From Candidatus Dojkabacteria bacterium (GTDB taxonomy: Bacteria; Patescibacteriota; Dojkabacteria; J137), in the NCBI GenBank assembly GCA_030950485.1, contig JAUZRK010000002.1, positions 111 to 64,110 of the forward strand: 64,000 nucleotides of DNA, written 5' to 3'. Below are positions 7,102 to 59,280 of the stretch, one piece after another (positions within the stretch are counted from its first letter, which is position 1; each line of letters opens with the position of its first letter). The notes beneath the pieces were generated by a model. The model had not been told where the DNA came from and made no database searches. It saw only the letters and a list, made by a program, of their open reading frames with translations. Position numbers and translations under genes: made by a program.

Positions 7102-8004
7102 ATGAGTAAGACAAACAACTTACCAAAAGATTATCAAGGAATTGTATATCAGATCATTAGACCTACTGGTCTTTTAGATCCAGTTCTAGATATAAGACCT
7201 TCATTACCTGAAAACTTTGAAAAACTGAAAATAGAATTGGAAAGATGTAATTACACTATGTTTGACAGTTATAAAGCAACTGAATGGGAGGATCCTCAAA
7301 TTCCAGATTTATTGAAGGAAATAAAAAAAAGAATTCATAATAACGAGAGAGTTTTAGTTACTACGCTAACTAAAAAAATGTCAGAAGAGCTAGCAAACTA
7401 TTTGATAGAAAAAGATATTAAAGCTAAATACCTTCACTCAGACATCGATACAGTTGAGAGAGTTGAAATTTTAAGAGATTTAAGAATGGGGAAATATGAT
7501 GTAGTTGTTGGAATTAACCTGCTAAGAGAAGGATTAGATTTGCCAGAAGTATCACTAGTAGCAATACTAGATGCTGATAAAGAGGGTTTTTTAAGATCAG
7601 ATACTTCTCTCCTTCAAACAATTGGAAGAGCAGCTAGAAACCTAAATGGTAAAGTTATAATGTATGCGGATAAAGTTACAGGCTCTATGCAAAGAGCTAT
7701 AGATGAAACAATCAGAAGAAGAGAGATCCAGGCGAAATATAACATTGATCATGGCATTACTCCAAAAAGTATTCAAAAAGCTATAGGGAACCAGCTAGAG
7801 CGATTTCAAGATGACAAAGATGATAAAGAAGATGAGAATGAGGCGAATATAATCAGTCGAGCGGAAAGTTTTAAAATTATGACTAAGAAAGATAGGAAGA
7901 AGTTCTTAAAAGAACTTGAATTTCAGATGTTGTTATATGCTGATCTAATGGAATTTGAGAAGGCTGCGGAGATGAGAGATTTACTTAATGAATTAAAGAA
8001 GTAA
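7102..8004 (+). CDS. uvrB: UvrB C-terminal half only (helicase domain 2 plus UVR motif); N-terminal ~400 aa absent; likely gene remnant
   Basis: [11 protein letters not shown]...[12 protein letters not shown]...[57 protein letters not shown]...TIGRAARN aligns with E. coli UvrB from about residue 410 to the end. No ATP-binding N-terminal domain anywhere in the window. Upstream is AT-rich intergenic DNA shared with divergent ssb. Confidence 0.8.
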
Positions 8005-8127
8005 AAAGTAAAAAGTAAAAAGTAAAAAGTAACAAGTAAAAAGTAACAAGTAAAAAGCTCAAAGCAAAAAGCAAAAAACAAAAAACAAAAAACAAAAAAC
8101 AAAAAACAACAAGTAAAAAGTAAAAGA
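8001..8127. repeat. Tandem heptanucleotide A-tract repeat array, 18 units of GTAAAAA / GCAAAAA / ACAAAAA and variants
   Basis: (GTAAAAA)3 GTAACAA GTAAAAA GTAACAA GTAAAAA GCTCAAA (GCAAAAA)2 (ACAAAAA)4 ACAACAA GTAAAAA GTAAAAG GTAAAAG, starting inside the uvrB stop codon. Confidence 0.9.
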
Positions 8128-10042: not shown

Positions 10043-11233
10043 ATGAATAAAAGTAATTCAAGTAAAAAAGTATTTGTAGGACTCTCTGGCGGAGTTGACT
10101 CAGCTGTTTCTGCTTATCTACTGAAAGAACAAGGATATGACGTAACTGGAGTTTTTATGAAAAACTGGTCCGGCGATGATTTTGGAATACAGGATGAATG
10201 CCCTTGGGAGGAAGATCAAGCTTCTGCAATCGAAGTTGCAGAGTACTTAGATATTCCATTTATGTCTTTTAATTTTGAAAAAGAATATAGAGATAAAGTA
10301 GTTGAATACTTTTTTGATGAATATAAATCAGGGAGAACTCCAAACCCTGACGTAATGTGTAATAAAGAAATAAAATTTAAATTGTTTTTAGATAGGGCTT
10401 TAGAAGAGGGAGCAGATTTTATTGCAACGGGGCACTATGCTAGGAAAGTAACGAGTAGCGAGTTACGAGTTACGGGTAATACATTAAGAAATAAAAAAGC
10501 TACCTCTCAAAACCCAGAACTCGAAACCCGCCACTCGTTACTCAAAGGTGTGGATCCTACAAAAAACCAAGTTTACTTTCTTTACAATATTACTCAAGAG
10601 CAATTAAAGCATGTTCTTTTTCCTATTGGAGACATTGAGAAAGCTGAAGTTAGGAGTATTGCTAAAAGTGCCGGTCTTCCAAACGCAGACAGGCCTGATA
10701 GTCAGGGTATTTGTTTTATAGGAAAGATAAACGTTTTGAACTTTTTAATGAGTAGAATTCCAAAGAAGCCTGGGAAGGTTGTTGATATTGAGACTAACAA
10801 AGAAGTTGGTGACCACGAAGGGATATATTTTTATACAATTGGTCAAAGAGCCAAAATAGCAAATCAGAGTGATGCATATTTTTACTGTGATAAAAATGTT
10901 GATGAAAATATAATGTATGTCTGTCACGGGACGGAGAATGTGAATTTGTATTCGGATAGTGTTGAGTTAGAAGATTTGCATTTGATAAATTCGGTAAATA
11001 TAAACCATAGTTTACAGAATTCCGAGGGGGAATCACCCACCCTGCCCTCCCTCAAGGGAGGAAAAATGCAGGCTATGGTGAGGTATAGGCAGGAGCCACA
11101 GCCAGGGGTTTTGTACTTCGAAAATGATTCATGGAGATTTAAATTTGACCAAAAAATAAGAGCAATAGCTAGTGGTCAGAGTTTGGTATTGTTTGATGGA
11201 GATGTTTGTTTAGGGGGAGGGATTATTAAGTAA
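10043..11233 (+). CDS. mnmA: tRNA-specific 2-thiouridylase MnmA, with two lineage-specific in-frame insertions
   Basis: PP-loop SGGVDSAV; GICFIG; C-terminal GQSLVLFDGDVCLGGGII. Two GC-rich insertions relative to E. coli MnmA, at about nt 10446-10544 and 10990-11100. Confidence 0.9.
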   Translation: MNKSNSSKKVFVGLSGGVDSAVSAYLLKEQGYDVTGVFMKNWSGDDFGIQDECPWEEDQASAIEVAEYLDIPFMSFNFEKEYRDKVVEYFFDEYKSGRTPNPDVMCNKEIKFKLFLDRALEEGADFIATGHYARKVTSSELRVTGNTLRNKKATSQNPELETRHSLLKGVDPTKNQVYFLYNITQEQLKHVLFPIGDIEKAEVRSIAKSAGLPNADRPDSQGICFIGKINVLNFLMSRIPKKPGKVVDIETNKEVGDHEGIYFYTIGQRAKIANQSDAYFYCDKNVDENIMYVCHGTENVNLYSDSVELEDLHLINSVNINHSLQNSEGESPTLPSLKGGKMQAMVRYRQEPQPGVLYFENDSWRFKFDQKIRAIASGQSLVLFDGDVCLGGGIIK

Positions 11234-11264
11234 TAAGTACTAAGTAAAAAGTAAAAAATAAAGA

Positions 11265-11317
11265 GTGAAAAGTCAAATGTAAAACACAAGAATAAGGTTT
11301 TACTTTTGACCTTTTAC
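11265..11317 (+). terminator. Long imperfect hairpin (terminator-like) built from GTAAAAG-type motif
   Basis: GTGAAAAGTCAAATGTAAAAC ... GTTTTACTTTTGACCTTTTAC (18/21 complementary) followed by a T-rich run. Preceded by AGTAAAAAGTAAAAAA, the same motif as the 8001-8127 array. Confidence 0.55.
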
Positions 11318-11332
11318 TTTTAACTTATCAGT

Positions 11333-11782
11333 ATGAAAATAAAACTCCGAGTACGGCTTATAATTCCATTCAAAAATAAATTACTATTAGTTGAAGATAC
11401 TAAAAATAAGTTTTGGTTTTATCCAGGTGGTAAGGTTGAGTATGGTGAAAGCATTGAAAGAGCTATAAAGAGAGAGATTGTGGAAGAATTAGGTGAGGAT
11501 AGAGAATTTAAAATGGATAAAATCTTATTTATTCGAGATTTTATTTTACCCGAAAAAAATGAACATAGCTTAGAATTATTTATATTGGGAAAACTAAATA
11601 ATTATGATGACTTAGAAGAAAGGACAGATCCAGAATATAATAATGAACATATTTTTAGATTTATAAATATAGAGGAACTCCCAGTAGAGTTATATCCTCA
11701 AGATTTAACTAAGAGAATTGTTGAAGGCTTTAAGAATGGATTTGAAGGAATTAAGGGTGAGTATGTTGGGAATTTGAGCTAA
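11333..11782 (+). CDS. NUDIX hydrolase
   Basis: Nudix box GGKVEYGESIERAIKREIVEELGE matches GX5EX7REUXEEXGU. Confidence 0.8.
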   Translation: MKIKLRVRLIIPFKNKLLLVEDTKNKFWFYPGGKVEYGESIERAIKREIVEELGEDREFKMDKILFIRDFILPEKNEHSLELFILGKLNNYDDLEERTDPEYNNEHIFRFINIEELPVELYPQDLTKRIVEGFKNGFEGIKGEYVGNLS

Positions 11783-12590: not shown

Positions 12591-13850
12591 ATGGCTGATG
12601 AGCAAACTGAGAAAATTACAGAACTTAATTTAGATTTTCAGCAAAGTCCTGTAATAGTTGAAGGATTTGACAACAATACAGATACTAGTGCTCTAGAAAA
12701 AAGTATTGCTGAAGTAAATAGAGTATTAGGTATTGATAATCAAGAAGCAAGAGTCTTATCGGAAAATATTCCTTTAGCAAATGTTAGTAAGAGATCTACA
12801 ATGTACGCAGAGGGTTCAATGGAAGTAATAGAGGAAAAGGGACGAGAGGTAGGTGTAATTTCTTTAAGAGAAAGCGAACATTTAACATCAGACAATGTGA
12901 ATAGTTCTAGTTCAAGAACTGAAGAATATTTCCACTTAGTACATGCTCAATCTAATGAGACTTTTAGAGGGATGATGCGAAGAATTAGGGTAGGAGAAGC
13001 TACATTAGAAGAATATAGGGCAGATAGAGTTAATGAGATTCAGGCAGGTTTAGTGCTAGCTATGCCAGACCTAGATCCTATATCTGAAGATGAGGAAGTG
13101 ATGAGGAGATACAGAGCTCTGCCTGAAATGATGCAATTAACTGCAGAAGTTTTAGCAGAATATCCTGAACAATACAATCCTATTGTAGCTACTAATGCTG
13201 ATATGAACAGATTCATAGAGAATCCAGACTACGCAATAGAAGTTACTGAACAATTTTTAAGTGGAGCGATAACTGAAGGAAATGAGTTTGAGATTGATAA
13301 TCAATCAGTTAGAGCTTTAGTTTATAATTTAGCAGGACAAGCTGCTTATCAAACTAGCTTAGGTGGAACTAATGATTTAGATTTAGAACGGAGAGAACGA
13401 AAAATAGTTCATGACTATATGATTAAACAAAAAAATGAGCAAAACAGGAATCTAACTGAGGATGAGGTGAGAAATGAACTGGCGGGTAAATCTATTGACT
13501 ATATTCGAATAAGTAACGAAGTAAGTCAGATTAAAGACAAGATGTCGCTTTTAGCTGAACTTATAGCGAAAGCAGCTGTCGCAACTATCCATGACCAGGA
13601 TATTGATATTGATGAAGAATTTAAAGAAAGTTGGCTTGGGTACACTGAATTAATTACAAAAAATAAGGAAAGGTTGTCTGAAATAACTTACTATGCTCAA
13701 GATCTATTTAAGGATCTGAGTAATCCTCCAAATGGTTTAGCTATAAATGAAATAAAAGTTTTCAGAAGGAGACTACTAGAAGTAAAAACTGAATTTGAAC
13801 AATTAGATGTCTTAATGGAATATCAAGTTTTAAAGGAAAGTAGGGGATAG
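12591..13850 (+). CDS. Hypothetical protein
   Basis: 419-aa ORF, acidic, no recognisable domain. Its 3' end overlaps the convergent gene by 89 nt. Confidence 0.55.
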   Translation: MADEQTEKITELNLDFQQSPVIVEGFDNNTDTSALEKSIAEVNRVLGIDNQEARVLSENIPLANVSKRSTMYAEGSMEVIEEKGREVGVISLRESEHLTSDNVNSSSSRTEEYFHLVHAQSNETFRGMMRRIRVGEATLEEYRADRVNEIQAGLVLAMPDLDPISEDEEVMRRYRALPEMMQLTAEVLAEYPEQYNPIVATNADMNRFIENPDYAIEVTEQFLSGAITEGNEFEIDNQSVRALVYNLAGQAAYQTSLGGTNDLDLERRERKIVHDYMIKQKNEQNRNLTEDEVRNELAGKSIDYIRISNEVSQIKDKMSLLAELIAKAAVATIHDQDIDIDEEFKESWLGYTELITKNKERLSEITYYAQDLFKDLSNPPNGLAINEIKVFRRRLLEVKTEFEQLDVLMEYQVLKESRG

Positions 13851-14613
13851 CCTCATCCATCTCCCATAACAACCTATTAACTCTCAGATCACCTAAGCTA
13901 ACCTCTGCCAAATCTTTTTCAAGCAGCATTTGAACATTTGCCTCCGCCTCCACTCTACTCCACGGACAAGCTAAAAGTTTAAGAGTTAAATTTACTGCAT
14001 CTTGAAACTTTTTATTTAACATTTCCTCCCTAATTTTTATAATTGAAGCAATCTGCTCATTTATTAAATGATCCATAATAACTGATCCAGATATAGCTTT
14101 TTCTTTTTCAACATATTCAATACAAAACTTAGCAATTAGTGGTGAGATTAATCTAACTCTTTGTTCAATAACTAATTGATTACCAACAAGCCTATCTATC
14201 TGAACTGCTATCTGACCAGATTTAGTACTTCGATTTTTATATCCTGTATAGAGCTTTTCTAGGTATAGTGAGGCCTCTGAATCGAGATTGCTAAGGCTTT
14301 TACTTACTAAACTTATTTTTTGAGCAGTAGTTATCTTATCGTTACCTTTATTGTAAGCATCAACATCACTACCATGTAAAATCTCATCATCATCATGAAT
14401 TGAGAATGTTGCATATAAATCTTGTATTAAATTTTCTTCTTTAGGAAATTCTTCTTCAAGATCTTTCGCTATGTAGCTTATTAATCTAATTCCTCTTGAA
14501 ATATGTTCTGCAGTAGTATCCCCTTTAACGTATGGATTATCTTTATATCTTTCCAGTCGCTCAGCTAGAAATTGGTTTTTTGAAACTAATTCTAAGATAG
14601 TTGAAGGCTTCAT
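13762..14613 (-). CDS. HD-domain phosphohydrolase, YfbR-like 5'-deoxynucleotidase family (putative)
   Basis: TTAEHISRGIRL and IHDDDEILHGSDV match YfbR motifs SEHS..VA and YHDASEVLTGD. The last ~40 aa look like a non-conserved C-terminal extension that overlaps the convergent ORF. Confidence 0.55.
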   Translation of the reverse strand: MKPSTILELVSKNQFLAERLERYKDNPYVKGDTTAEHISRGIRLISYIAKDLEEEFPKEENLIQDLYATFSIHDDDEILHGSDVDAYNKGNDKITTAQKISLVSKSLSNLDSEASLYLEKLYTGYKNRSTKSGQIAVQIDRLVGNQLVIEQRVRLISPLIAKFCIEYVEKEKAISGSVIMDHLINEQIASIIKIREEMLNKKFQDAVNLTLKLLACPWSRVEAEANVQMLLEKDLAEVSLGDLRVNRLLWEMDEAIPYFPLKLDIPLRHLIVQIQFLLLVVSF

Positions 14614-14697
14614 TAGTTAAATTCTTAATATGTAAATCGGTTACATGAGTATGAATTTAATTAAGATTTTATTCTAGTGAATAGGTATTAACCTAAG

Positions 14698-15459
14698 CTA
14701 ATCTTCAGAAGGAATTGAATCTCCAGAAAAATCATGAACTTGAATTTGTTCAGAGTAAGAAGGAATTATTTCTGTGTATTGTTTAGTTTTAAGTTGTTTT
14801 AGTATTTCAACTAGATAGTCCATTGAATTTTGTGAAGTTTCTTCATTTTTAATTGCTTCATCAATGCTAACCCAGAGGACATCTTGATGTGGCCATTTAT
14901 CATAAACGATCTCACCCTCGTAGGTTGAGCAAAAATAGATATTCATTATAACGTCTGAGAAAAGATCTTTATTATTATCAAGGTTAATTTTTCTTATTGT
15001 TCCAGCATATTTCATATTCTGTTCTAATACTTCAATCTCAGGTTGATCTCGTAACCTTCTTCTTAAAACTATTTCAGAAGTTTCTCCTTTTCTAACACTA
15101 GCTCCAAGAATACCTAAATCTCCATAAAAAGGTTGTTTCTTTCTTCTTCTATTTATAATCATTAATTCATCTGAGTCTTTCTTGAAGATTATTCCATGAG
15201 AGTAAAGTTTATATTTATCTGCTATTGGTCTGATTATACTGACTGGGTAAATTTCCTCTGTAAATTTCTGTCCTTGAATTGTTAGCTTGTAAAGATCGTT
15301 AATTTTTTCAATTAGGTTATCTTTTAGTAAATGCTTTAAATGATAATTGAAAAGATCTGAACCCATTTTGTAAGGTTGTAGTTCGGAGAATAGCTTCCCG
15401 GTGGGATAACTAATAAGGCTTCTGAGCATGTTTTCTCTTGTAGGGTTTAAATTGTTCAT
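14698..15459 (-). CDS. Winged-helix (HTH) plus degenerate Nudix-domain protein; putative transcription regulator
   Basis: The N-terminal ~70 aa align with the paralog at 51558-52250 (KLFSELQ...FNYHLKHLLKDNLIEK..DLYKLT.QG). The C-terminal Nudix fold has a degenerate box (GETSEIVLRRRLRDQPE, no REx2EE), so it probably binds rather than hydrolyses. Confidence 0.6.
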   Translation of the reverse strand: MNNLNPTRENMLRSLISYPTGKLFSELQPYKMGSDLFNYHLKHLLKDNLIEKINDLYKLTIQGQKFTEEIYPVSIIRPIADKYKLYSHGIIFKKDSDELMIINRRRKKQPFYGDLGILGASVRKGETSEIVLRRRLRDQPEIEVLEQNMKYAGTIRKINLDNNKDLFSDVIMNIYFCSTYEGEIVYDKWPHQDVLWVSIDEAIKNEETSQNSMDYLVEILKQLKTKQYTEIIPSYSEQIQVHDFSGDSIPSED

Positions 15460-15490: not shown

Positions 15491-15525
15491 GCAGATTAGG
15501 CAGATTTAGCAGATTCTCGCAGATT
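15491..15525. promoter_or_regulatory. Four direct repeats of GCAGATT at 9-10 bp spacing in a divergent promoter region
   Basis: GCAGATTagGCAGATTtaGCAGATTctcGCAGATT at 15491, 15500, 15509 and 15519. Lies between the wHTH-Nudix gene (-) and the GxxExxY gene (+). Helical-phase spacing suggests a regulator-binding array. Confidence 0.5.
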
Positions 15526-15619: not shown

Positions 15620-16042
15620 ATGGATGCATTTAAAGAGAAGGAGCTTACTGAAGTAATTATAAGAAGCTTTTATAAAGTATATAATAATTTAGGCTTTGGT
15701 TTTCTAGAGAAAGTATATGAGAATGCTTTAAAGATAGAACTGATTAAATCAAACTTGATCGTAGAATCACAACAACCCTTAAAGGTATTCTATGAAAACT
15801 ATCAAGTTGGGAGTTACTTTGCTGATTTAGTAGTAAACGACAAAGTGATTTTAGAGTTAAAAGCAGATGAGATTTTACATCCTGCACATGAAGCACAGCT
15901 AGTAAATTACTTAAGGGAAACGGATATTGAAGTGGGATTATTACTTAATTTTGGTAAGAGACCCCAACTTAAAAGAAAGATATGGAGTAATTCAAATCCG
16001 CGTAAATCTGCGTGCCATTTACTGATAACTACAACATCCTAA
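15620..16042 (+). CDS. GxxExxY-family protein
   Basis: GFLEKVYENAL contains the GxxExxY signature; the overall ~130-aa pattern (YFADLVVNDKVILELKA...HEAQLVNYL) is typical of this family. Confidence 0.75.
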   Translation: MDAFKEKELTEVIIRSFYKVYNNLGFGFLEKVYENALKIELIKSNLIVESQQPLKVFYENYQVGSYFADLVVNDKVILELKADEILHPAHEAQLVNYLRETDIEVGLLLNFGKRPQLKRKIWSNSNPRKSACHLLITTTS

Positions 16043-17120
16043 CCTCCGCATCTATAAATGCCTGAATATTACCATCTAAAACCGAATCAGACTGTGAAGT
16101 TTCTACTCCAGTTCGAACATCTTTAACTAGTTTATAAGGTTGTAGAACATAATTTCTAATTTGATTTCCCCAACCTGCAATTTTATATTCTCCTTTTTCT
16201 TGAGCCATTATAGCTTTCTGCTTTTGCTCTTCAATTTCATAAAGTTTTGCTTTAAGCATTCGCATAGCTGTTTCTCTATTTTGATGTTGAGTTCTATGTG
16301 CAGATGACTCTACCACAATTCCTGTTGGTTTATGAACAATTCGAACTTTTGAAGCTACTTTATTTACATTTTGACCTCCAGGTCCTCCACTTCTCATAGC
16401 TGTAAAATCTAATTCACTTTCATCAAGTTCAATATCGATATCTACCTCAACTACAGGTATCACTTCTACTCCCGAAAAACTTGTTTGCCTTAGTCCTTGA
16501 GAATTAAATGGAGAATTTCTAACTAATCTGTGAGTTCCATGTTCATGTTTTAAATAACCGTATGCAAACCTGCCTTTAATTTCTAGATTAACACTTGAAA
16601 GACCTGCTTCAGTTCCAGGTACTTGATCAATTATAGTAACCTTCCAACCAATAGAATTACAATATCTTGTATACATTCTTAAAAGCATCTCTGTCCAATC
16701 CATAGCCTCAGTACCTCCTTGTCCAGCATGAATACTTAAAATACAATCGCTAGAATCAAACTTTCCAGAAAGATAAGTTGAAATTTCAGTTTTATCAATA
16801 CTTTTTTCAAAGCTTTTAATTTCTTCTTGAAGCATTTCAATAACTTCTAGATCATCTTCAGACGACTCTTCTAACATCTCGCTAATACTTTCTGAAGTCA
16901 TGTTAAGTGTTTCAATCTCTTCAAACTCATTTGTAAGATCTCCTATATTTCTCATCACATTCTGAGCAGTATCATTATCATTCCAGAAATCCGTAGCCTT
17001 TGATTTTTCAGTTAAAGCCTCAAGTTCAACTTTCAAATTAGTTATATCTTTCTTTTCGATAAGATTTTCTAATTTAAGTTTTAGCTCTTTAGCTTTGTTT
17101 TGTAGTTCTATAAAAGTCAT
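16029..17120 (-). CDS. prfB: Peptide chain release factor 2, uninterrupted (no programmed +1 frameshift site)
   Basis: SPF tripeptide (VRNSPFNSQG) and GGQ motif (SGGPGGQNVNKVASKVRIVHKPTGIVV). The full 363 aa lie in one frame. Confidence 0.9.
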   Translation of the reverse strand: MTFIELQNKAKELKLKLENLIEKKDITNLKVELEALTEKSKATDFWNDNDTAQNVMRNIGDLTNEFEEIETLNMTSESISEMLEESSEDDLEVIEMLQEEIKSFEKSIDKTEISTYLSGKFDSSDCILSIHAGQGGTEAMDWTEMLLRMYTRYCNSIGWKVTIIDQVPGTEAGLSSVNLEIKGRFAYGYLKHEHGTHRLVRNSPFNSQGLRQTSFSGVEVIPVVEVDIDIELDESELDFTAMRSGGPGGQNVNKVASKVRIVHKPTGIVVESSAHRTQHQNRETAMRMLKAKLYEIEEQKQKAIMAQEKGEYKIAGWGNQIRNYVLQPYKLVKDVRTGVETSQSDSVLDGNIQAFIDAEVRML

Positions 17121-40262: not shown

Positions 40263-41732
40263 ATGAGTGTAAGAACTAGAGTGGCACCAAGCCCAACGGG
40301 ATATCCCCATATAGGGCTGATTAGAACTGGATTATATTGTTATGCATTATCTAAAAAGAACGGAGGACAATTTGTTTTACGTCTTGAAGATACAGATCGA
40401 AGCAGATTTGTTGAAGGTGCAACTGATGAAATTTATGAATCTTTTGAATTATACGGACTAGATATTGATGAAAGTACTAAACATGGAGGTGACTATGGTC
40501 CTTATATACAATCTGAAAGATTAGATATGTATAGCGAGTATGCACATTTACTTGTTGAAAAAGGAGCTGCTTACTATTGTTTTCTAACTCCAGAAGAAAC
40601 TAAGAACTTACAAGAACAATTTAGACTTGAAAATACTAGATTCAGATCTCCATATAGAGATATGTCTCTATCAGAGTCTAAACAGAAAGTTGTTTCTGGG
40701 GAAAGCTATGTAATCAGGTTAAAGGTTCCTTTAGATAGAGAGATAACTTATGAAGATGGTGTTCAAGGAAAAATGAAGCTTAATACTAATGAAACTAGCG
40801 ATGTAGTTTTAATGAAACAAGATGGCTTTCCTACATACCATATGGCGGTAGCTATTGATGATCATTTTATGAGAATTTCGCATGTATTCAGGGGATTTGA
40901 ATGGATTCCTAGTATTCCAGTTCAAATACTAACTTACGAAGCTTTAGAATGGGAAATGCCTAAGCACTATCATCTATCTGTAATTTTAAATCCAGATGGA
41001 AAAGGAAAATTATCAAAAAGAAAAGGAACAACTAATGCAGTTAAATTCATTGAAGATGGTTATTTACCAAATGCTATGTTGAATTTCTTAATGTTATTAG
41101 GTTGGTCTTCTCCACTAAAGGTAGAGCATGGGGAAAAAGAAAGAGAGATTTTTTCACTAGAAGAGTTTGTTGAACTTTTCGATCCGAATGATTTAAATAA
41201 AAGTAACCAAAGATTTGATATTAATAAACTGAATTGGTTTAACAAACAGTACATGAACTCGACTGAGATTGAAGAGTTTAAGTCAATCTTTATAACTTGG
41301 CTTGAAAAATTTAGATCTGATGATGAATTATATAATTCTGTTATTAATGATACAAAATTGGAAGAAAAACTAGAGATAGTGAAGGGAAGAGCATCTACTC
41401 TAGTAGAGGCACTTGATTCTATTAGATTCTTCTATACTCTATCTAAACCAATTGACTGGGATATTAAACAATTAAAAAAACTAAATAATAAAGTCTCAGT
41501 AGTTAAGGAAAACGTTATTGACCTAATTAAATCTATGAGTGATGATTCAAGTGAATGGACTCATGAGGCTTGGGAAGAAGGTATGAGAAAGATTGGAGAT
41601 GAATTAGGCGAGAAACATGGAGATGTGTTTATGGTTTTAAGAATTGGTGTAGTTGGCGAACCATTCTCTCCACCATTATTTGAGACTATTCAAATTCTTG
41701 GGAAGGATGAGGTATTAAAGCGATTAAAATAA
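40263..41732 (+). CDS. gltX: Glutamate--tRNA ligase
   Basis: HIGH motif PSPTGYPHIG and KMSKS motif KLSKRKG; class I catalytic core. A GGGCAAATA-AT-TATTTGCCC hairpin follows at 41740-41762. Confidence 0.9.
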   Translation: MSVRTRVAPSPTGYPHIGLIRTGLYCYALSKKNGGQFVLRLEDTDRSRFVEGATDEIYESFELYGLDIDESTKHGGDYGPYIQSERLDMYSEYAHLLVEKGAAYYCFLTPEETKNLQEQFRLENTRFRSPYRDMSLSESKQKVVSGESYVIRLKVPLDREITYEDGVQGKMKLNTNETSDVVLMKQDGFPTYHMAVAIDDHFMRISHVFRGFEWIPSIPVQILTYEALEWEMPKHYHLSVILNPDGKGKLSKRKGTTNAVKFIEDGYLPNAMLNFLMLLGWSSPLKVEHGEKEREIFSLEEFVELFDPNDLNKSNQRFDINKLNWFNKQYMNSTEIEEFKSIFITWLEKFRSDDELYNSVINDTKLEEKLEIVKGRASTLVEALDSIRFFYTLSKPIDWDIKQLKKLNNKVSVVKENVIDLIKSMSDDSSEWTHEAWEEGMRKIGDELGEKHGDVFMVLRIGVVGEPFSPPLFETIQILGKDEVLKRLK

Positions 41733-50572: not shown

Positions 50573-51448
50573 CTATTCTTCAATTCTATCAACTATTGAT
50601 TCCAGTTTATTTAATCCAGCTTGAATTTCTGGAGTTCCTTTTGATATTCCTGGATGTCTATTTACTTCTAATAAGTATGGTTTATTATCAGGATGTGATA
50701 TTAGAATATCTGGTCTTGCCCATTTTAAATCTAGTGCTTTTACAGACAACTTTGCAATATTTTGAATATGTTCAGGTATCTCTTTAATATCTACAAATAC
50801 TTCTTTTGCTCCTTTTGAAGCATTATTTACATGTTCTCCATCTTTTCCATAACTTTTTTCTGCTGAGAGAATATTTCCTTCTGCAGTTAGAATACCCCAA
50901 TCATACTCGTTTTTAACGAACTGTTGAAACATGAATTTTTTTCTATTCGCTAACCCATCAATAATTTTTTTTAATTCTTTCTTATTATAAGCTACATCTA
51001 TGTCATTTCCTTGAGATCCTTTTAGACTCTTTACTAGAATTGGAAAGTTTAAATGTTTTAAAACAGCTTTAACTGTATAGTTACTTTTAGTACCGCCCAT
51101 AAAATAGGTAGCCGGAATGGGTAGTTTATTTAATGCAAAGCTAACTTGATCAGTTATTTTAGAAGTAGTTTTTTCTACCTTTGTATGTTCAATCCCTACT
51201 GAATCTAGATATAGTGAAATTGCGTATGAAAGATCTCTATTAGACCAATATGAAGTTAACCAAACGAAATCATAATTCCTTATATCCTCACCCTTGCAAA
51301 GTACTCTTATTTCATCATTTTCAAAAATAAATTCAATATTCCGCATTCGACTATTTACAAATTCGTATTCTGCGTTACCTTGAAAATGTTCTAAAATTGT
51401 ACTTAGATTTTGTAAACCAGGTACTATCAGTATTCGTTTCTTGTCCAT
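50573..51448 (-). CDS. ATP-grasp enzyme (RimK / glutathione-synthetase-like)
   Basis: KSLKGSQGNDIDV and C-terminal LLEVNRHPG are typical of RimK-type ATP-grasp ligases. Confidence 0.6.
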   Translation of the reverse strand: MDKKRILIVPGLQNLSTILEHFQGNAEYEFVNSRMRNIEFIFENDEIRVLCKGEDIRNYDFVWLTSYWSNRDLSYAISLYLDSVGIEHTKVEKTTSKITDQVSFALNKLPIPATYFMGGTKSNYTVKAVLKHLNFPILVKSLKGSQGNDIDVAYNKKELKKIIDGLANRKKFMFQQFVKNEYDWGILTAEGNILSAEKSYGKDGEHVNNASKGAKEVFVDIKEIPEHIQNIAKLSVKALDLKWARPDILISHPDNKPYLLEVNRHPGISKGTPEIQAGLNKLESIVDRIEE

Positions 51449-51557: not shown

Positions 51558-52250
51558 TCAAAAGCCCTCAGCTTCAACAAATATATCGTGAGCTGTATCA
51601 TTTGCTGTTTGTGAAATTTCCAATATTGATTTGAATGTATTATATAGATCATTTCTTTTCATTAATGCACTTTCTTCTATCCAAAAGCTTTCGTGTTCTG
51701 GCATTTTCTCTTTTAATTCACCCTCAGTGTTGTGTACTGAAAATATGACCATAATTTGATCTTGGACGATTCTATTCGTTTTATCGTAAGCAAATTTTCT
51801 CTCAATTCTTCTAAATTTGAATTCACCACTTAATCCAGTTTCTTCTATAAGTTCTCTCCTTGCAGCTTCTTCGTATGTTTCTCCAAATCTTACTTTTCCC
51901 GTATATCCTCCTACTTTTCCAAAGTATGGGTGTTTAAGTCTTCTATTAACTAAGAATTCTTTATTACCATCTTTGCTTCTAGAAACGAAAATTGCTACTG
52001 ATACTTTTGGCAACTTCTCCAATTTCATATTCTCTTCGTCTACTCTACCTATATATTCTTTTCCTTTTGAATTAAGTTTATATAGATCACCAGCTTTTTC
52101 TACTAATTCATCATCAAGTAATTTTTTAATGTAGTAGTTAAAATGGTTTGATGTAATGTTTTTTATTTGAAGCTCGGAAAATTTTAAACCATTTTCAGAA
52201 TACATTAGTTTTCTAAGTATTTGATCTTGGTATGGCAGGTATTTGTTCAT
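51558..52250 (-). CDS. Winged-helix (HTH) plus canonical Nudix-domain protein (putative Nudix-linked regulator)
   Basis: N-terminal wHTH paralogous to 14698-15459. Intact Nudix box GKVRFGETYEEAARRELIEETGL. Confidence 0.7.
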   Translation of the reverse strand: MNKYLPYQDQILRKLMYSENGLKFSELQIKNITSNHFNYYIKKLLDDELVEKAGDLYKLNSKGKEYIGRVDEENMKLEKLPKVSVAIFVSRSKDGNKEFLVNRRLKHPYFGKVGGYTGKVRFGETYEEAARRELIEETGLSGEFKFRRIERKFAYDKTNRIVQDQIMVIFSVHNTEGELKEKMPEHESFWIEESALMKRNDLYNTFKSILEISQTANDTAHDIFVEAEGF

Positions 52251-52351: not shown

Positions 52352-52939
52352 TTAACTTACAAATTTATCTGGAACTATATCTTGTCCTTTAGAGTGAGTT
52401 TCCAAGTATTCTAATGAATCATTTATACTGTCAGAAATAAAAACAATAGATTCTAGTGGGACTTTTGTAAATTGTTTTACAAAGTTTTCTTTAAAAAATT
52501 CTATAAATGTATTATAAAAGCCATTATGATTGTACAAAACTATAGGTTTATCAAACAACTTATTAGCTTTCCCACCAATAATAGTACCTATTTCCTCGAA
52601 GGTTCCATATCCTCCTGGAAGTACTATAAACCCATCTGAAAGATCTATTATTTTTCGCTTTCTCTCTTCCATAGTATCCATTAAGAATGATTTATCAAGA
52701 CCGTCAAATGCCTTGTAACCTTTAGTTACTTTCATTAAATCTTTAGCCATTACACCAGTTAGATCATTACCGCCAGCAGATTTATAAGCTTTGGCTAGCT
52801 CCGCCATCATTCCATAGTCAGTTCCTCCGTAAACTACTCCATGATTTAATGTAGCTATTTGAATTAATAGATTATTAGTTAAATCAATATATTCCTGTCC
52901 TACATTCATTGAAGATGTTAAAGTTATTCCAATTTTCAT
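52352..52939 (-). CDS. LOG-family protein (cytokinin riboside 5'-monophosphate phosphoribohydrolase-like, TIGR00730)
   Basis: GGTDYGMMAELAKAYKSAGG and FIVLPGGYGTFEEI motifs. Confidence 0.8.
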   Translation of the reverse strand: MKIGITLTSSMNVGQEYIDLTNNLLIQIATLNHGVVYGGTDYGMMAELAKAYKSAGGNDLTGVMAKDLMKVTKGYKAFDGLDKSFLMDTMEERKRKIIDLSDGFIVLPGGYGTFEEIGTIIGGKANKLFDKPIVLYNHNGFYNTFIEFFKENFVKQFTKVPLESIVFISDSINDSLEYLETHSKGQDIVPDKFVS

Positions 52940-53008: not shown

Positions 53009-55402
53009 TTATTGTCCCCTCTTAATCCTCAATGAATTCATTACAACAGAAACTGAACTAAACGCCATTGCCGCACTTGCAATTACTGGCGATAATAAAC
53101 TTCCAAAAATTGGATAGAATAAACCAGCAGCTATAGGAATAGCTATAACATTGTATCCAAATGCCCAGAATAGATTTTGCTTTATTATAGATAGAGTTTT
53201 ATTAGATAGCTCTATTGTTTCAATAACTTTATCTAAAGTTCCCTTTACTAAGACAACATCTCCAGATTCAATAGCTACATCAGTTCCAGTCCCCATTGCA
53301 ATACCAATATCAGCAGTTGCTAACGCAGGAGCATCGTTAATTCCATCACCTACCATAGCTATAACAAGATCCTCACTAGTCTTTAACTCTTTAATTTTAT
53401 TAGCTTTGTCAGATGGCAGTACTTCAGCAACTACTTCGTCAATTCCTAACTGAGAGGCTATAGCTTCTGCTGTTTTTTGATTATCTCCAGTTAACATTAC
53501 TACTTTAATCCCTAATCTATGAAGTTTTTCAATAGCGTTCTTAGAATCTTCTTTAATAGTATCTGCTAGCGCAAAAAGAGCTACAACTAAATTATCAATG
53601 CTTACAAATATAGTTGTCTTCCCCTCATTTATTAATCTAGCCGCTTCTTCTGAAGTTTTCTTATCAATGTTTATTTTCTTACTATCCATTAATCTTTGAT
53701 TTCCAAGCATTACCTCTAATTTATCAATTTCACCTTCTACACCCATTCCCTCTATGTTATTAAATTTTTCTACTTTTAGACTTACTTCTCCTAATTCATT
53801 TAAAGCGTATTGAGATATCGTGCTTGAAAGAGGATGCTCAGATAAATGCTCAATCGAGTAAGAATAACTTAAAATAGTTTCTCTTTTCTCTTTATCAGAA
53901 ATATAAAAGTCTGTTACCTCTGGTTGACCTTTAGTTAAGGTACCGGTTTTATCGAAAACAATAGTGTCTATCTTATGCGCTAATTCAAGAGCTTTTGCAT
54001 CTTTAATTAAAATTCCATTTCGCGCAGCAATTCCTGTACCTACCATTGCAGCAGTTGGCGTAGCTAGTCCAAGAGCACAAGGACAAGCAATTATTAATAC
54101 AGAAGTTGTTATGTATGTTGCAAGCTGAATTATACTAGTTCCATCTTCAACTAGACCTAGTCTATCTGCTATTAAGCTCCAGAATGTAAATGATATAACT
54201 GCAATTATAATAACAATTGGAACAAAGACGCTTGAGATCTTGTCTGCTAGTTTTTGAATAGGTGCCTCAGTTCCTGAAGCTTCTTCAACCATTTTTATAA
54301 TTTGAGCCAACATTGTTTCATTTCCAACTTTCTTTGCGCTGAATTTAAATGTTGAGGTTTTATTAATTGTAGAACCTATTACTTCATCTCCTTGCGTTTT
54401 AGTTATAGGTAAAGACTCTCCTGTTACCATTGATTCGTCAATCGTAGTTTTTCCATCAATTATTTCTCCATCAACAGGTATTTTTTCTCCAGGCCTAACT
54501 ATTATAATATCGTTTAAAATCACTTCTTCTATTGGTAATTTTATTTCTTCTCCATTTCTAATTACAGTTGCGTGCTTTGCTTGTAACTCTAATAATTTTT
54601 TTATTGCATCATTAGCCTGTCCTTTTGCCCTGGCTTCGAGAAGTCTTCCTAGTAAAATGAATAGTACTATAAATACTGAAGCCTCAAAAAATACATCTAC
54701 ATCGATATTATTAAATACTTTTGGAAAAAAAGTCACTACTGTTGAAAATAACCATGCAGTGAATGTTCCTAAAGCTACCAGCGTATCCATGTTTGTAGCT
54801 TTTACTTTTAAAGCGCTCCAAGCACTTTGGAAAAATTGGCTACCTCCCCAAAATAAAATCGGAGTAGAAAGCAAGAATTGAAATAAAAAGAAATTATTAA
54901 TCATTAAGTTAGTGTTGCCACTATTTATATCAGTATGTCCTAAAGGAGCATGTGACATTTCGACAATACCTGCCATTGAAAGCATCATCCACATCATTAT
55001 GAAAATAAATGGAATTGCTAAAAATGCTACTATTTTTACTTTTCTAACAAGTTTTTGATACTCCTTCTTTTTAAGACTTGCTGCGTGATTATGAGAATTG
55101 TCTTGATTCTTTCCTGAATTATTAGAACTCTCAATTTTTTTAGTATTCATTGGATCCGCAAGAACTGTTTCTCCTTGTTCATTATTGATTAATTTATACG
55201 AGCCTGCCGATTCGACAGCTTTACTTAAATTTTTAAGAATTTCTTCTGAGTTTAATGATTCATTTAATTCAACAGTCATTATTTCTGTTGCGTAATTTAC
55301 TTTTACTGATTCTACTCCTTCTACTTTACTAATCATTTTTTCAATCAGCATCTTACAAGAAGCACAGTGCATTCCGATTATTGGATATGTTTGTTTCATC
55401 AT
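53009..55402 (-). CDS. copA: Copper-translocating P-type ATPase
   Basis: N-terminal HMA domain (GMHCASCK), CPC motif ([12 protein letters not shown]), [15 protein letters not shown]. Confidence 0.9.
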
Positions 55403-55406
55403 TTAT

Positions 55407-55871
55407 TTAACCTAATATAAATCTAAAATATTTAAAGTGATTTTTAACAAAATCAGAATTTCCGATATATTTATCCACACCTAAATATCTGCCGGCCCCA
55501 AAAATTCCTAATTGAATAAAAACTAGTGCGTAGATTATATGATCATCAATAGGACCGTGTTCAGCTGGTAAGGCCGATATATAAAATAGAACCATCATAA
55601 TAACTCCGCAAATGCTCCCAAACCTAGTTAAAACACCTAGTAATAGAGATAGTCCAATTCCTATTTGGCCGTATACAACTAAGAAATCAATAATACTATT
55701 GCCCGCCATTTCACTAAAGAAATCTTTGAATGGTCCTGAAGTTGCGTAGGCTAAGTATCCTTCTGAGCTAAAGTCGTTTAATAATTTATCAATACCCGAA
55801 TATAAAAATATAAATCCAATTGAAATTCTTAAAATGACAATAATTAATGATCGTTTATTAATAGTTCTCAC
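55407..55871 (-). CDS. DoxX-family membrane protein
   Basis: 154 aa, 4 TM, DoxX-like N-terminus (ILRISIGFIFLYSGIDKL). Confidence 0.65.
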   Translation of the reverse strand: MRTINKRSLIIVILRISIGFIFLYSGIDKLLNDFSSEGYLAYATSGPFKDFFSEMAGNSIIDFLVVYGQIGIGLSLLLGVLTRFGSICGVIMMVLFYISALPAEHGPIDDHIIYALVFIQLGIFGAGRYLGVDKYIGNSDFVKNHFKYFRFILG

Positions 55872-55892
55872 TTTTATAAAGTAAAAAATAAA

Positions 55893-57335
55893 TTATTTAA
55901 CAACTATAGTATTCATCATTCCTGATTCTGCATGTTCTAGGATATGGCAATGGTGTGCCCACTCTCCTTTATCTAGAGGGACTATTGCTACTCTGACTGT
56001 TTCATTTGGATGAACTAATACAGTGTCTCTAAAATAGTTCTCATTTGAAGCTACTCCATTTCTACTAATCACTTTAAAGAATTGTCCATGAAGGTGCATA
56101 GGATGTAATCTAAATGATTCATTCTTATATTCAAGAATATTTACTTCATTATATTTCAATATATAATCTGAATTATCTGGAAATACTTCATTATTTATAG
56201 CCCAATTTATTCCCCCCATCATTCCCATTCCTCCATTACCACTAAATGTATTTAACTTAAAGCTAATATCAACATCATTATTAATAGCATCTGTCCAATC
56301 TGGAATATTAATATTAACTGGGTAATCAAAGTCAGGTGTCTCTATTGTACTGCCAGTAACTATGATTTCAGCTAGCTGGTAGTTATTTCTAGTATAGTAA
56401 TCGTAAACCTTAAAAGTCTTTCCACTTGAATCTTTAGGAATCTTTATATCTAGATCTACTCTATTTCCAGGTGCTATTTCAAAATTGTCTAAATCAAAAG
56501 CTTCTTTTACATACATTCCGTCAACCGCAATTATTTTAGAATCTAGACTCCCAAAAGAAGGCAGATATACTCTTCCATTAGAAGTGTTAACTAATCGTAG
56601 TCTAATTCTCTCTCCAGGTCTTACCTCTAATTGCTCATTAATAGTGCCATTAACAGTAATTACATTTCCCCATCTACCATCATGCATTAGATCTCCGCCA
56701 GTTACAAAATTCGGATCTATTTGATAAGTATCTGTCATTCTAATATCATCTAATATCCAAACTACATCCTGTGAATATTCTTTTGAGATTTTATCTTCTA
56801 CTATTAAAGTTCCAAATAATCCTCTTTCTACTTGCTCTGCTCCTCTTACGTGAGGGTGAAACCAAAATGTGCCTGCATCTTTAGGTGTAAATTCGTAAAC
56901 AAATGAATCTCCAGGCGCTATTGGTTCTTGATTCACTCCAGGAACACCATCCATTGCGTTTGGAACTCTAACCCCATGCCAGTGTATTGTAGTTTCATCT
57001 GGGAGATTATTAGTAAAGTTAACCTTTAATGTATCTCCTAGATTTATTCTAATTTCAGGTCCAGGGATTTCTCCGTTATAGCTCCAAACTTTAGTCTTAT
57101 AACCATTAACTATCTCTACCTCATCCTCATAAGCTCTAATACCAACTTCAACTACTTCTCCTGAATCATTAACAACATTTGAATAAGCATTACCAAATTC
57201 TCCTCTAAGAGCTGGCGAGCTAACATTGTTCGTGAGCAAGCTAGATCCAACAACTAATACTCCAACTACAAATAGGCCAATTGTCATCAAGTTAGTCGCT
57301 TTCTTTAAATTTGTTTTCTTAATTATTACTTGCAT
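55893..57335 (-). CDS. Multicopper oxidase
   Basis: Copper-binding motifs TIHWHGVRV and HCHILEHAESGMM; signal/TM at the N-terminus. Confidence 0.85.
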   Translation of the reverse strand: MQVIIKKTNLKKATNLMTIGLFVVGVLVVGSSLLTNNVSSPALRGEFGNAYSNVVNDSGEVVEVGIRAYEDEVEIVNGYKTKVWSYNGEIPGPEIRINLGDTLKVNFTNNLPDETTIHWHGVRVPNAMDGVPGVNQEPIAPGDSFVYEFTPKDAGTFWFHPHVRGAEQVERGLFGTLIVEDKISKEYSQDVVWILDDIRMTDTYQIDPNFVTGGDLMHDGRWGNVITVNGTINEQLEVRPGERIRLRLVNTSNGRVYLPSFGSLDSKIIAVDGMYVKEAFDLDNFEIAPGNRVDLDIKIPKDSSGKTFKVYDYYTRNNYQLAEIIVTGSTIETPDFDYPVNINIPDWTDAINNDVDISFKLNTFSGNGGMGMMGGINWAINNEVFPDNSDYILKYNEVNILEYKNESFRLHPMHLHGQFFKVISRNGVASNENYFRDTVLVHPNETVRVAIVPLDKGEWAHHCHILEHAESGMMNTIVVK

Positions 57336-57357
57336 TTATTACTGTGTAATTATCAAT

Positions 57358-57549
57358 CTAATTAATTAAATCACTTACTATTTGAACATCATTCTCCTCG
57401 ATTCCTTCTAAAACTAGCTCTCCTTTATTATCATCTTTTAATTCTAAGCTAACTACCTTATCTTCAAAGCCATTATCCTCAAGCTCCATTCTGATAAGAG
57501 ATACACAAGCTTGGCAGTGCATTCCATCGATTGTAAAAGTTGTATTCAT
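57358..57549 (-). CDS. copZ: Copper chaperone (HMA domain)
   Basis: 63 aa; GMHCQAC metal-binding motif. Confidence 0.75.
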   Translation of the reverse strand: MNTTFTIDGMHCQACVSLIRMELEDNGFEDKVVSLELKDDNKGELVLEGIEENDVQIVSDLIN

Positions 57550-57568
57550 TCTGAAATTATTAAAATAA

Positions 57569-58996
57569 TTAAATTACAAAAATATCTACAGGCTTAACCA
57601 TTCCCATTGAACAAGTAAGTTTATACTGACCTTTATTAGGCTCTCCTAAATCAATCTCAGTTATACCTTTGTTTAATGATACATAATTATCAATTAAACC
57701 ATTTGCAGCCATAAAGTAAGCGCATCCTTGAATACCTTGATTATCTACTATGATTTTTGTAGGTACTCCTGCTTTGATTGTAGTAGAGCTAGTTGGAATA
57801 TATTCAAATCCTTTTGCTGTTATATTGATTATTTGTACTCCTTCTTCATTTGCTGTAACTACCTCTCCTTGTTCAGAGCTGCTGAAAATATCATTCAAAC
57901 TATCTAGTCCTAAAACATTCAACTGCCCATTTATATTGTAAATAGCAAAGAATATAATGACTAATCCTGCTACTATATTGAATTTTGCAGTTAAGTGAGG
58001 CTTTGAATTAAATGCAACTCCACTAAAACTTATCATCATAAGTGGTACAAAAGTACCAAGAGCGAACATCAACATTATTGCAGCACCTCTTATAAAGTCA
58101 CCACTTGTTAATGCTATAGCTTGAGCTATTAAAGTAAATCCACAAGGAAGTAAAAATGTTAATGATCCAAGTAGAAAAGGCATATATCTACCTTTAAAAT
58201 TTGTTTCATCAGATGCAAATCTTGTTAAAGATTTTGGCGCGGTGAATTTAAATCTTTGGAATTTATCTACTCCAAGCATCTGCATTGCTAGTATAAACAT
58301 TATTATTGAGACAATAATTGTGATAGTTGCAAATACAGCTAAGTTATCTAACGATATTTTTTCACCTAATAATCCAAGAACTCCTCCTAAGATTGTAAAA
58401 GATGTAATTCTTCCCAGATGAAAAAGCATATGCGGCTCTGCTTTTTCTCTATTTGAATCCTTATCAATATAAATCTCATTCCATTGCTTACTCATAGATA
58501 GAAGCAATCCTCCAACAAGTGCCGCGCAGCTTGAAAACCCAGCTGCTAATCCTAGGAATAGGAACGCAGGTAAGGCTGATTTTGAATCTACACTAACGTA
58601 CTGACCTAATTTTAGCTCTTGGAAAAAGTAAAAGGCTACTAATAATGAGACACTAATAATAATAAGCCTTAAGTAATTCTTGAACTTTTTTGGGTTTATA
58701 CTTAGCCCTCCATTTTTAAAACTTATTGCTGGAGTTATATCTCTCTTAAACTGTTTGTCGCTAAATTTATATCCTAGACTCTTAAAATCTTTATTAAGTC
58801 CTTCTAAATTAGGTTTTTCTGTTCCAACATATTTTATGTCTACTCTCCCCCCTTTTAGAGAAGCATCAACTGAATCAATCCCGTCTTGCTTTAAAAGTTT
58901 TCTTTCAATTAATATTTCGCAAGAAGCGCAATGCATTCCTTCTACGTAAAGAGTGCAATTTGTAACTTGGTTATTTGGTTTATTTTTTTTGCTCAT
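57569..58996 (-). CDS. Copper-handling membrane protein: N-terminal HMA domain, CcdA/DsbD-like TM core with two conserved Cys, C-terminal cupredoxin-like domain
   Basis: GMHCASCE; TM Cys in FSSCAAL and LLPCGF; C-terminal beta-rich domain with CAYF..CSMGM. Confidence 0.6.
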   Translation of the reverse strand: MSKKNKPNNQVTNCTLYVEGMHCASCEILIERKLLKQDGIDSVDASLKGGRVDIKYVGTEKPNLEGLNKDFKSLGYKFSDKQFKRDITPAISFKNGGLSINPKKFKNYLRLIIISVSLLVAFYFFQELKLGQYVSVDSKSALPAFLFLGLAAGFSSCAALVGGLLLSMSKQWNEIYIDKDSNREKAEPHMLFHLGRITSFTILGGVLGLLGEKISLDNLAVFATITIIVSIIMFILAMQMLGVDKFQRFKFTAPKSLTRFASDETNFKGRYMPFLLGSLTFLLPCGFTLIAQAIALTSGDFIRGAAIMLMFALGTFVPLMMISFSGVAFNSKPHLTAKFNIVAGLVIIFFAIYNINGQLNVLGLDSLNDIFSSSEQGEVVTANEEGVQIINITAKGFEYIPTSSTTIKAGVPTKIIVDNQGIQGCAYFMAANGLIDNYVSLNKGITEIDLGEPNKGQYKLTCSMGMVKPVDIFVI

Positions 58997-59001
58997 TTTA
59001 T

Positions 59002-59280
59002 TTATTTATAATCGAATAATTTTAACAATTCCTCAGTTGTTTTCTTTTCTTCACCATTTTTAACTTGATCAATTACGCAGTGATTAAGATGATCTTCTAT
59101 AATTAAAAGATCTATCTTTTTTAAGGCACTTTGTACTGCTCTAGATTGGTGAACTATATCTACGCAGTATTTATCGTCTTCAAGCATTTGTTGAATTTTT
59201 TTTAGATGACCTTGGACTATCTTTATTCTGTGAATTGCTCTTGTTTTTACATCTTTTTGATGTTTGTGGTTATGTTCCAT
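59002..59280 (-). CDS. csoR: CsoR/RcnR-family metal-sensing transcriptional repressor
   Basis: 92 aa; conserved RIKIVQGHLKKIQQMLEDDKYCVDIVHQSRAVQSAL...HLNHC (Cys-His-Cys copper ligand pattern). Confidence 0.8.
   Translation of the reverse strand: MEHNHKHQKDVKTRAIHRIKIVQGHLKKIQQMLEDDKYCVDIVHQSRAVQSALKKIDLLIIEDHLNHCVIDQVKNGEEKKTTEELLKLFDYK

Follow-up and report, generated by a model that had tools for sequence, protein, structure and literature searches.

Two paralogous wHTH-Nudix genes

The window analysed here, a stretch of 64,000 nucleotides of contig JAUZRK010000002.1 from Candidatus Dojkabacteria bacterium, encodes two proteins, A and B, in which an N-terminal winged helix-turn-helix (wHTH) region is joined to a C-terminal Nudix fold, and these two genes, their family and the DNA elements accompanying it are the subject of this analysis.

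14698-15459, minus strand: open reading frame (ORF) of paralogue A, clade A1, 253 aa, wHTH at residues ~5-70 and a Nudix fold whose box is destroyed
51558-52250, minus strand: ORF of paralogue B, clade B, 230 aa, wHTH and a canonical MutT/MTH1-like Nudix domain

A and B are 31% identical over 222 aa (BLASTP, E = 7e-26), and since the alignment begins at residue 1 it takes in the N-terminus in addition to the Nudix domain; A and B are confirmed as true paralogues, homologous across both domains. The Pfam NUDIX profile matched B at 2.3e-13 and A at 4.5e-4 (20.7 bits, slightly below the cut-off of 21.1), and residues ~5-70 of both proteins gave sub-threshold Pfam matches to the winged-helix families DUF7347 and HTH_45. 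B is 100% identical to the NCBI entry 'NUDIX domain-containing protein [Candidatus Dojkabacteria bacterium]'.

The Nudix box of B, GKVRFGETYEEAARRELIEETGL, is an exact fit to the pattern GX5EX7REUXEEXGU. The aligned position in A reads ASVRKGETSEIVLRRRLRDQPEI, with the changes G to A, RE to RR, EE to DQ and G to E, so that neither glycine is left, the glutamate of RE and the two of EE are gone, and the pattern no longer applies. The degenerate box is shared by six A orthologues of 41-46% identity to A (P0101-P0106).

Predicted structures and domain order

AlphaFold2 models of A and B were built from family alignments and are confident, with a predicted local distance difference test score (pLDDT) of 94.5 and a predicted template modelling score (pTM) of 0.88 for B, and 89.6 and 0.78 for A. 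Both models have the same layout of wHTH, linker helix and Nudix fold, the wHTH covering residues ~5-70 and the Nudix domain ~80-210. DSSP assigned to both models helices at 6-16, 24-27 and 34-46, the last being the recognition helix, a bridge at 22 and a hairpin of strands 50-53 and 56-59, which is the wHTH topology H1-b1-H2-H3-b2-b3 with the recognition helix followed by a beta-hairpin wing. In Foldseek searches against the PDB the Nudix part of B was closest to MTH1 (3e-10) and that of A to MutT (3hhj) and MTH1 (2e-9), documenting the Nudix alpha/beta/alpha fold (PF00293) in both proteins; only the Nudix part was matched, and no solved chain spans both domains. A profile of the N-terminal 72 residues matched the HxlR-family factor 3df8 (1e-3) and Sso10a (1r7j, 2.5e-3) in the PDB, and further AspA, YdzF and ArsR. 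The wHTH families of Pfam and NCBIfam all scored sub-threshold for A and B.

An earlier sequence-only reading of this DNA had claimed an N-terminal winged helix and a C-terminal Nudix domain in both proteins, degenerate in its box in A and canonical in B; the confident models, the profile matches to DNA-binding wHTH proteins, the alignment and the box pattern bear this out. That reading had named an N-terminus other than a wHTH, or homology limited to the Nudix fold, as grounds for giving it up, and what was found is a wHTH in both models and homology across both domains.

Family, clades and distribution

Homologue searches gave about 220 proteins of 225-250 aa, and an exhaustive profile search with the threshold E <= 1e-30 yielded 481 representatives of clusters formed at 50% identity, almost all of them full-length. 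All named members are from Patescibacteria, among them Dojka-, Sacchari-, Roizman-, Woese-, Davies-, Nomura-, Taylor- and Berkelbacteria and WWE3. Automated annotations name the proteins MutT/YjhB hydrolases. No description of this wHTH-Nudix family was found in the full-text literature searched, in line with the earlier claim that the family was undescribed; the searches returned no paper joining Nudix, Saccharibacteria and transcriptional regulator, none on DUF7347, none tying Nudix proteins to regulation in Patescibacteria, and nothing relevant on a C-terminal Nudix domain with a helix-turn-helix.

Clades were defined by the Nudix box among 207 full-length members. Clade B (90 sequences) has the canonical GX5EX7REUXEEXGU, which is kept by 90/91 clade B members. 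Clade A2 (about 105 sequences) has a non-canonical but conserved box, G.V.KGE.......RKL.[QAIVE]ETGL, in which RE has become RK and EE is without its first E. The seven sequences of clade A1, window A and its six orthologues, have a box more degenerate than that of A2 and form a small sister group within the A-type branch (A2 and A1). About 110 members thus lack the catalytic glutamates and retain the winged helix, and the recognition helix, ..[ND][DH][LF]FN[YF]H[LI][QK].., is the most conserved stretch family-wide; it was picked automatically as the search pattern for locus retrieval. The loci comprised 79 from GTDB species representatives (mostly clade B) and 80 from metagenomes (mostly A2), in which ORFs were called and neighbour proteins clustered.

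A fourth small group of members with the box R-C-x-x-[KN]-E was also seen (L022, L050, L068, L077). In two of its loci, L050 and L077, clade-B-type palindromes precede genes of two unknown families, c50 (~365-395 aa) and c47 (~150 aa), suggesting that the regulon is slightly larger. Several of the metagenome-assembled genome (MAG) records L006, L007, L026, L050, L053, L056, L058, L068, L071 and L075 are titled 'uncultured Gammaproteobacteria bacterium', and that of L028 'Chloroflexi bacterium'; as gene and synteny are of Patescibacteria type, these titles are probably mislabelled.

A palindrome upstream of clade B genes

Clade B genes have a palindrome of 20-26 bp some 40-80 nt before their own start, with hardly any copies elsewhere in 2.1 Mb of flanking DNA, and the corresponding site of window B lies in the spacer between B and the LOG gene upstream of it.

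52320-52297, minus strand: TTACCCAAAAACTTTTCACTAGAT, candidate operator of B, ending 47 nt upstream of the B start codon (ATG)

This is the Dojkabacteria variant of the palindrome and the sole conserved block in the six Dojkabacteria-type upstream regions compared (the window, L001, L002, L162, L164 and L165), which are otherwise unalignable. The regular expression ACCCAA-N4-8-TT[CT]ACT found those six regions and only two other matches in the window and ~2.2 Mb of loci. Across clade B, 38 of 72 upstream regions contain the 8-mer CTAGTAAA, where 0.8 would be expected, and 19 of 70 contain the dyad TAAAG-N4-CTTTA, where 0.1 would be expected. The symmetrised motif, with the halves ATCTAGTAAAGTC and GACTTTACTAGAT, amounts to 25.7 bits over 45 sites, and its left arm played no part in the selection of the sites. 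Scanning 2.10 Mb of loci and the window with the position weight matrix (PWM) gave 64 matches of at least 12 bits, 50 of which are upstream of a family gene, 36-116 nt off (a few up to 325 nt); most of the remaining ones stand before the first gene of a family-containing operon or before a family gene cut by a contig end. An extended -10 box follows the centre of the palindrome at a distance of ~31 nt, so that this centre falls near -42, as in a promoter-proximal operator, and no T-run follows the element. The palindrome was first read as ACTTTACTAGTAAAGT with the centre CTAG, which was ruled out, the centre falling between GTC and GAC. Clade B genes have AAGGAG leaders.

Downstream cassettes and elements of the A-type branch

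In 45/66 A2 loci with downstream sequence a 2-oxoglutarate (2OG)-Fe(II) oxygenase, YfbR-like HD or HIT gene is found at positions +1 to +3 on the same strand. The oxygenase (~279 aa; PF03171, 1e-10) occurs in 34 A2 loci and is nearly always the next gene. The YfbR-like HD gene is at +1 in 5-7 A2 loci and, immediately downstream of the family gene, in 9-11 Saccharibacteria loci of clade B, where it (HD_3, 1e-19) is the only recurrent functional partner of that clade. CYTH, S-adenosylmethionine (SAM)-methyltransferase and many orphan proteins make up the further A2 cassette genes, and A1 orthologues have a small orphan gene downstream, followed by HIT. Of the tie to nucleotide salvage proposed earlier, the presence of nucleotide-directed hydrolases (HD, HIT, CYTH) beside A-type genes holds and salvage as such is not borne out.

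The A2 element, with the halves TTTTACCGAGGAC and GTCCTCGCTTTTT, is located 10-45 nt past the stop codon of the A2 gene at 58 of 73 non-redundant sites, with 40-85 nt separating it from the gene that follows. Each cassette gene is preceded by a copy of the element (TACCGAGGAC and GTCCTCGC), with extra copies between successive genes, and none of 76 clade B genes is followed by it. The A1 element keeps the A2 frame with a changed core, TAACCGAAATC and GATTTCGCTAGAA, at the equivalent place in A1 orthologues, one of which (L081) has an additional copy upstream of its own gene. Upstream of four A1 genes no common element was detected, only extended -10 boxes (TGCTAnnnT) near the ATG. In A1 and A2 upstream regions (e.g. 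L080-L082, L106, L116, L123 and L138) a -10 box, often TGnTAnnnT or TATAAC/TATACT, ends just 6-9 nt short of the ATG, with no Shine-Dalgarno sequence present; the mRNAs of A1 and A2 regulators are thus probably leaderless.

The place of the A-type element between regulator and cargo would also suit an RNA terminator or attenuator hairpin, with the protein uninvolved or acting on RNA in the manner of PyrR-like attenuation. Consistent with this, GAGG-N4-8-CCTC and a T-run follow 45/76 A2 genes, the flanking pair varies between C-G, T-A and A-T as in a stem, and a hairpin with a stem of 5-7 bp is predicted (-6.8 to -11.6 kcal/mol). This stem is however short and weak, the A1 version is without a T-run and reaches -1.8 kcal/mol, and CACTAG replaces the T-run at the end of several internal copies. 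Nor would a terminator account for arms that are identical in sequence in genomes so divergent from each other; the homologous clade B element precedes the -10 box with no T-run, and the elements match no Rfam family. That the element is an RNA feature is rated as unlikely.

Co-variation of element and recognition helix

The type of element was compared with the sequence of the recognition helix (H3). H3 of the form DHF[NT]FH[IL] pairs with GTAAAGTC and GACTTTAC as the two halves in 41 loci, and never with another type of element. H3 EHMNYHL pairs with AACTAAAA-N4/5-TTTCAGTTGAC, also given as ACTaAA-N-TTcAGTTGA, in 15/17, and the Dojkabacteria form [KN]HFNY[HY], which includes window B, with TACCCAAA-N-TTTTCACTAGA in 3/3 and in three further orthologues. 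L075 combines a canonical Nudix box with the A-type helix DLFNYHL and has an A2-type element upstream, which shows that the element type tracks the helix and not the state of the Nudix box. Clade B, window B included, has a conserved two-armed site in its own promoter region that co-varies with the recognition helix, as expected of an autoregulated one-component transcription factor. The earlier proposal of a regulator family gains direct comparative support from these clade-specific conserved palindromes.

The same observations bear on the view that these are housekeeping Nudix hydrolases, the wHTH serving dimerisation or contact with a nucleic-acid substrate (e.g. in RNA 5'-end or cap processing) and the palindromes being bound by another factor. 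The perfect catalytic box of nearly all clade B members, the closeness of the Nudix domain to the nucleotide-sanitising enzymes MutT and MTH1, and the automated annotation as MutT/YjhB hydrolases all speak for such a role. It fits poorly with a winged helix retained where the catalytic glutamates are lost and with a recognition helix conserved above all else, with an element type that follows the helix even in the exceptional L075, and with elements promoter-proximal to the family gene or the next gene. A purely housekeeping function is considered improbable.

The locus of A in the window

The region around A contains the following further features.

13762-14613, minus strand: divergent YfbR-like HD phosphohydrolase, 84 nt downstream of A, candidate target of A
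14614-14697, minus strand: spacer between A and the HD gene, with an exact TTCACTAGA at 14681-14673 and TAACCGA at 14643-14637
15491-15525, minus strand: four direct repeats of AATCTGC upstream of A, abutting the promoter-like boxes TGCTATTAT and TATAAT

The HD ORF gave a Pfam HD_3 match of 5.8e-4 (20.2 bits against a cut-off of 22.5), no NCBIfam match and no PDB sequence match, and the H...HD...D residues are present (AEH, IHDDDE, IDRL). Its homologues P0221-P0223, of 35-40% identity, have weak PF12917/PF13023 (YfbR-like/HD_3) matches, do not adjoin family genes and have no operator-like sites; a relation between the window HD protein and the HD genes beside family members in other lineages was undetected by hidden Markov model (HMM) comparison. 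Of the earlier placement of A beside a YfbR-like HD gene, the adjacency of the ORF stands and the family assignment is weak. The 3' end of the HD ORF overlaps a convergent ORF of 419 aa (12591-13850, no Pfam family) by 89 nt (13762-13850), and as its last ~29 residues look low-complexity and hydrophobic, one of the two ORF ends may be mis-called.

The TTCACTAGA of the spacer equals the right arm of the B operator, and TAACCGA equals an A1-type left arm. Exact TTCACTAGA was found three times on both strands of the window: in the A-HD spacer, in the B operator and in a coding sequence at 41153. The AATCTGC repeats have a spacing of 9-10 bp (Tandem Repeats Finder period 9, 3.8 copies) and comprise 4 of the 13 AATCTGC in the window; the array is a possible binding array. 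Consensus promoter and terminator scans of the A and B regions performed no better than on shuffled sequences.

A third Nudix gene of the window, stand-alone and 149 aa long (11333-11782, plus strand), lies 3 kb from A and adjoins a PCMT methyltransferase gene; its NCBIfam matches are weak and MutT/YtkD/RppH-like. Divergent from A is a PDDEXK_3 gene (15620-16042, plus strand; 2e-39) of the PD-(D/E)XK type, which shares 14 nt with the 3' end of the ORF 16029-17120 on the minus strand, a single uninterrupted ORF of 363 aa that we take, from its look, to be release-factor-2-like. Tandem arrays are found at 7994-8125 (TAAAAAG, 18.7 copies), overlapping the ends of two predicted ORFs, and at 11228-11284 (AAGTAAA, 8.1 copies).

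The neighbourhood of B

Window B is flanked by two genes on its own strand.

50573-51448, minus strand: RimK-type ATP-grasp gene (Pfam 1.8e-15)
52352-52939, minus strand: LOG/Lysine_decarbox gene (Pfam 2.7e-23)

Both Pfam matches agree with the earlier placement of B between an ATP-grasp and a LOG gene. The three genes share a strand, with gaps of ~100 nt and no terminator predicted between them, and could on this ground be taken as one functional module of B, ATP-grasp ligase and LOG nucleotide hydrolase. A phmmer search with the two neighbour proteins, however, gave no homologue near the other 78 family loci. In the closest orthologues of B, 47-51% identical to it, the adjacent gene encodes a 2',5'-RNA-ligase-like protein, an ABC transporter or a GNAT acetyltransferase, and B has an operator-like element of its own in the LOG-B spacer. 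ATP-grasp and LOG were rejected as functional partners of B, and such a module is held to be very improbable. The more general claim that each paralogue is encoded beside a nucleotide phosphohydrolase gene describes no family rule for B. The upstream gene is divergent in 3/3 of these close orthologues, and this, together with their unrelated neighbours, indicates that B is a stand-alone unit.

In 13 Saccharibacteria loci (e.g. L039:12231-13106), where synteny is conserved, the second or third gene after that of clade B encodes a fusion of Nudix (NUDIX, 1e-9) and RNase H (RVT_3/RNase_H). Upstream of the LOG gene in the window, the ORFs of 53009-59280 (minus strand) presumably form a metal-resistance cluster, judged by sequence, with what look like a large P-type ATPase (797 aa), several proteins with an N-terminal CxxC heavy-metal-binding region and a CsoR/RcnR-like ORF of 92 aa.

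Proposed mechanism

A and B are best read as one-component transcription factors (TFs) belonging to a family spread across the Patescibacteria, in which the wHTH binds a two-armed site and the Nudix domain is a small-molecule module, a reading to which a probability of roughly 70% is given. What is observed is the homology, the folds, the box states, the conserved elements, where these lie and how they co-vary with the recognition helix; that the proteins bind the elements and dimerise, in which direction they regulate, what kind of ligand they take and that B is catalytic are predictions. The N-terminal ArsR/HxlR/Sso10a-like winged helix would bind its site of ~20 bp probably as a dimer, and the C-terminal MutT/MTH1-like Nudix domain would be the effector module, most likely nucleotide-binding. 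The likeness to MutT and MTH1 hints at a nucleoside di- or triphosphate derivative as ligand; at 17-24% identity this is only a lead, and the substrate is not transferable.

Clade B, window B included, has all catalytic Nudix residues and its own operator and may thus be read as a Nudix hydrolase under its own transcriptional control, sensing its effector and probably destroying it as well. The A-type branch, having lost the metal-binding glutamates, would act as a pure sensor controlling the gene or genes directly downstream, its putative targets being a variable cassette of nucleotide-directed enzymes with the clade palindrome before each. In the window this cassette would consist of the single divergent YfbR-like HD phosphohydrolase.

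Several points weigh against this interpretation. For A in the window, the HD label of the candidate target comes from sub-threshold scores and stays putative, the A-HD spacer has half-site matches only and no complete A1-type palindrome, and the AATCTGC array is without counterpart upstream of A1 orthologues. For A2, k-mer and dyad searches upstream of the genes gave no motif above controls, the element sitting downstream of the gene instead, and this element with its T-run could be a weak intrinsic terminator, instead of or besides an operator. The co-variation of helix and element is partly confounded by common ancestry, and the scan covered ~20 kb round each family gene, so that sites elsewhere in the genomes, or another binder, are possible.

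A bolder and rather unlikely extension would be a Patescibacteria-specific nucleotide-signal circuit, in which the catalytic clade degrades its own inducer and the non-catalytic clade switches on a rapidly exchanging cassette of nucleotide-attacking enzymes (2OG oxygenase, HD, HIT, CYTH, methyltransferase) and many orphan proteins, with one operator copy per gene. If true, it would represent a modular response to abnormal or foreign nucleotides (damaged, modified, phage- or host-derived) in organisms that cannot make nucleotides themselves.

Patescibacteria, also known as the candidate phyla radiation (CPR), represent a large share of bacterial diversity. To our knowledge, recognisable regulators are very scarce in them and none of their regulons has been defined by experiment. 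The present family would offer them a phylum-wide group of TFs with explicit predicted operators, in three or four specificity classes matched to the recognition helix, together with a natural pair of catalytic and non-catalytic paralogues. It also draws attention to nucleotide-directed enzymes, as yet uncharacterised, that may be regulated as a set in these reduced organisms. The predictions are directly and cheaply testable with a protein of 230 aa and an oligonucleotide of 24 bp.

Comparison with known systems

The closest single-domain relatives are MutT and MTH1 (NUDT1), which gave the best sequence and fold matches of the C-terminal domain of both A and B and have a canonical box as in B; they differ in being single-domain enzymes with no DNA-binding domain. 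Enterobacterial NadR, with an N-terminal HTH, nucleotide-metabolism enzyme domains and a palindromic operator, is both enzyme and repressor (PMC2330246), and its logic would by analogy be that proposed for clade B. The enzyme domains of NadR (nicotinamide mononucleotide (NMN) adenylyltransferase and ribosylnicotinamide kinase) are however unrelated to Nudix, and its regulon is that of nicotinamide adenine dinucleotide (NAD) biosynthesis. Bacteroides AraR (PMC4666351, PDB 5bs6) represents a Nudix-domain regulator of the NrtR family recruited to a non-NAD regulon, and matched the Nudix part of A and B weakly in sequence (E 0.08-0.14). AraR differs in having the NrtR architecture with an N-terminal Nudix domain, a sugar effector and a role in arabinose use.

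NrtR, of which AraR is an offshoot and with it the closest known system, is defined by an N-terminal Nudix domain followed by a C-terminal winged helix (PMC2330246), and the wHTH is N-terminal in A and B, so the opposite domain order noted from the sequence is upheld. Both systems combine a DNA-binding winged helix and a Nudix-like effector domain in one protein and have lineage-specific palindromic sites. In NrtR the integrity of the Nudix signature correlates with activity, many members having lost signature residues and those with an intact signature being expected to be active (PMC2330246), a pattern resembling that of the present family; for Slr1690, an NrtR-family protein, a restored signature was shown to raise activity (PMC2330246). 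The differences concern both domains. The wHTH described here is HTH_45/DUF7347/HxlR-like, and Pfam found no NrtR winged-helix domain; the Nudix domain appears nearest MutT/MTH1 rather than the ADP-ribose (ADPR) pyrophosphatases to which that of NrtR, with ADPR as effector, is homologous, and the NrtR Nudix domain 3gz8 gave in Foldseek a general fold match only (1e-8, root-mean-square deviation 7-10 A). NrtR sites stand before genes of NAD metabolism; no NAD genes were seen in the family neighbourhoods, where the elements stand before the family gene or before 2OG oxygenase, HD, HIT and CYTH genes, and the family is distributed in Patescibacteria. It looks like a family distinct from NrtR, an independent fusion with similar working, and the idea of a Nudix regulator would then have arisen twice, here with the two domains in reverse order and with a sensor that is MutT-like and not ADPR-like.

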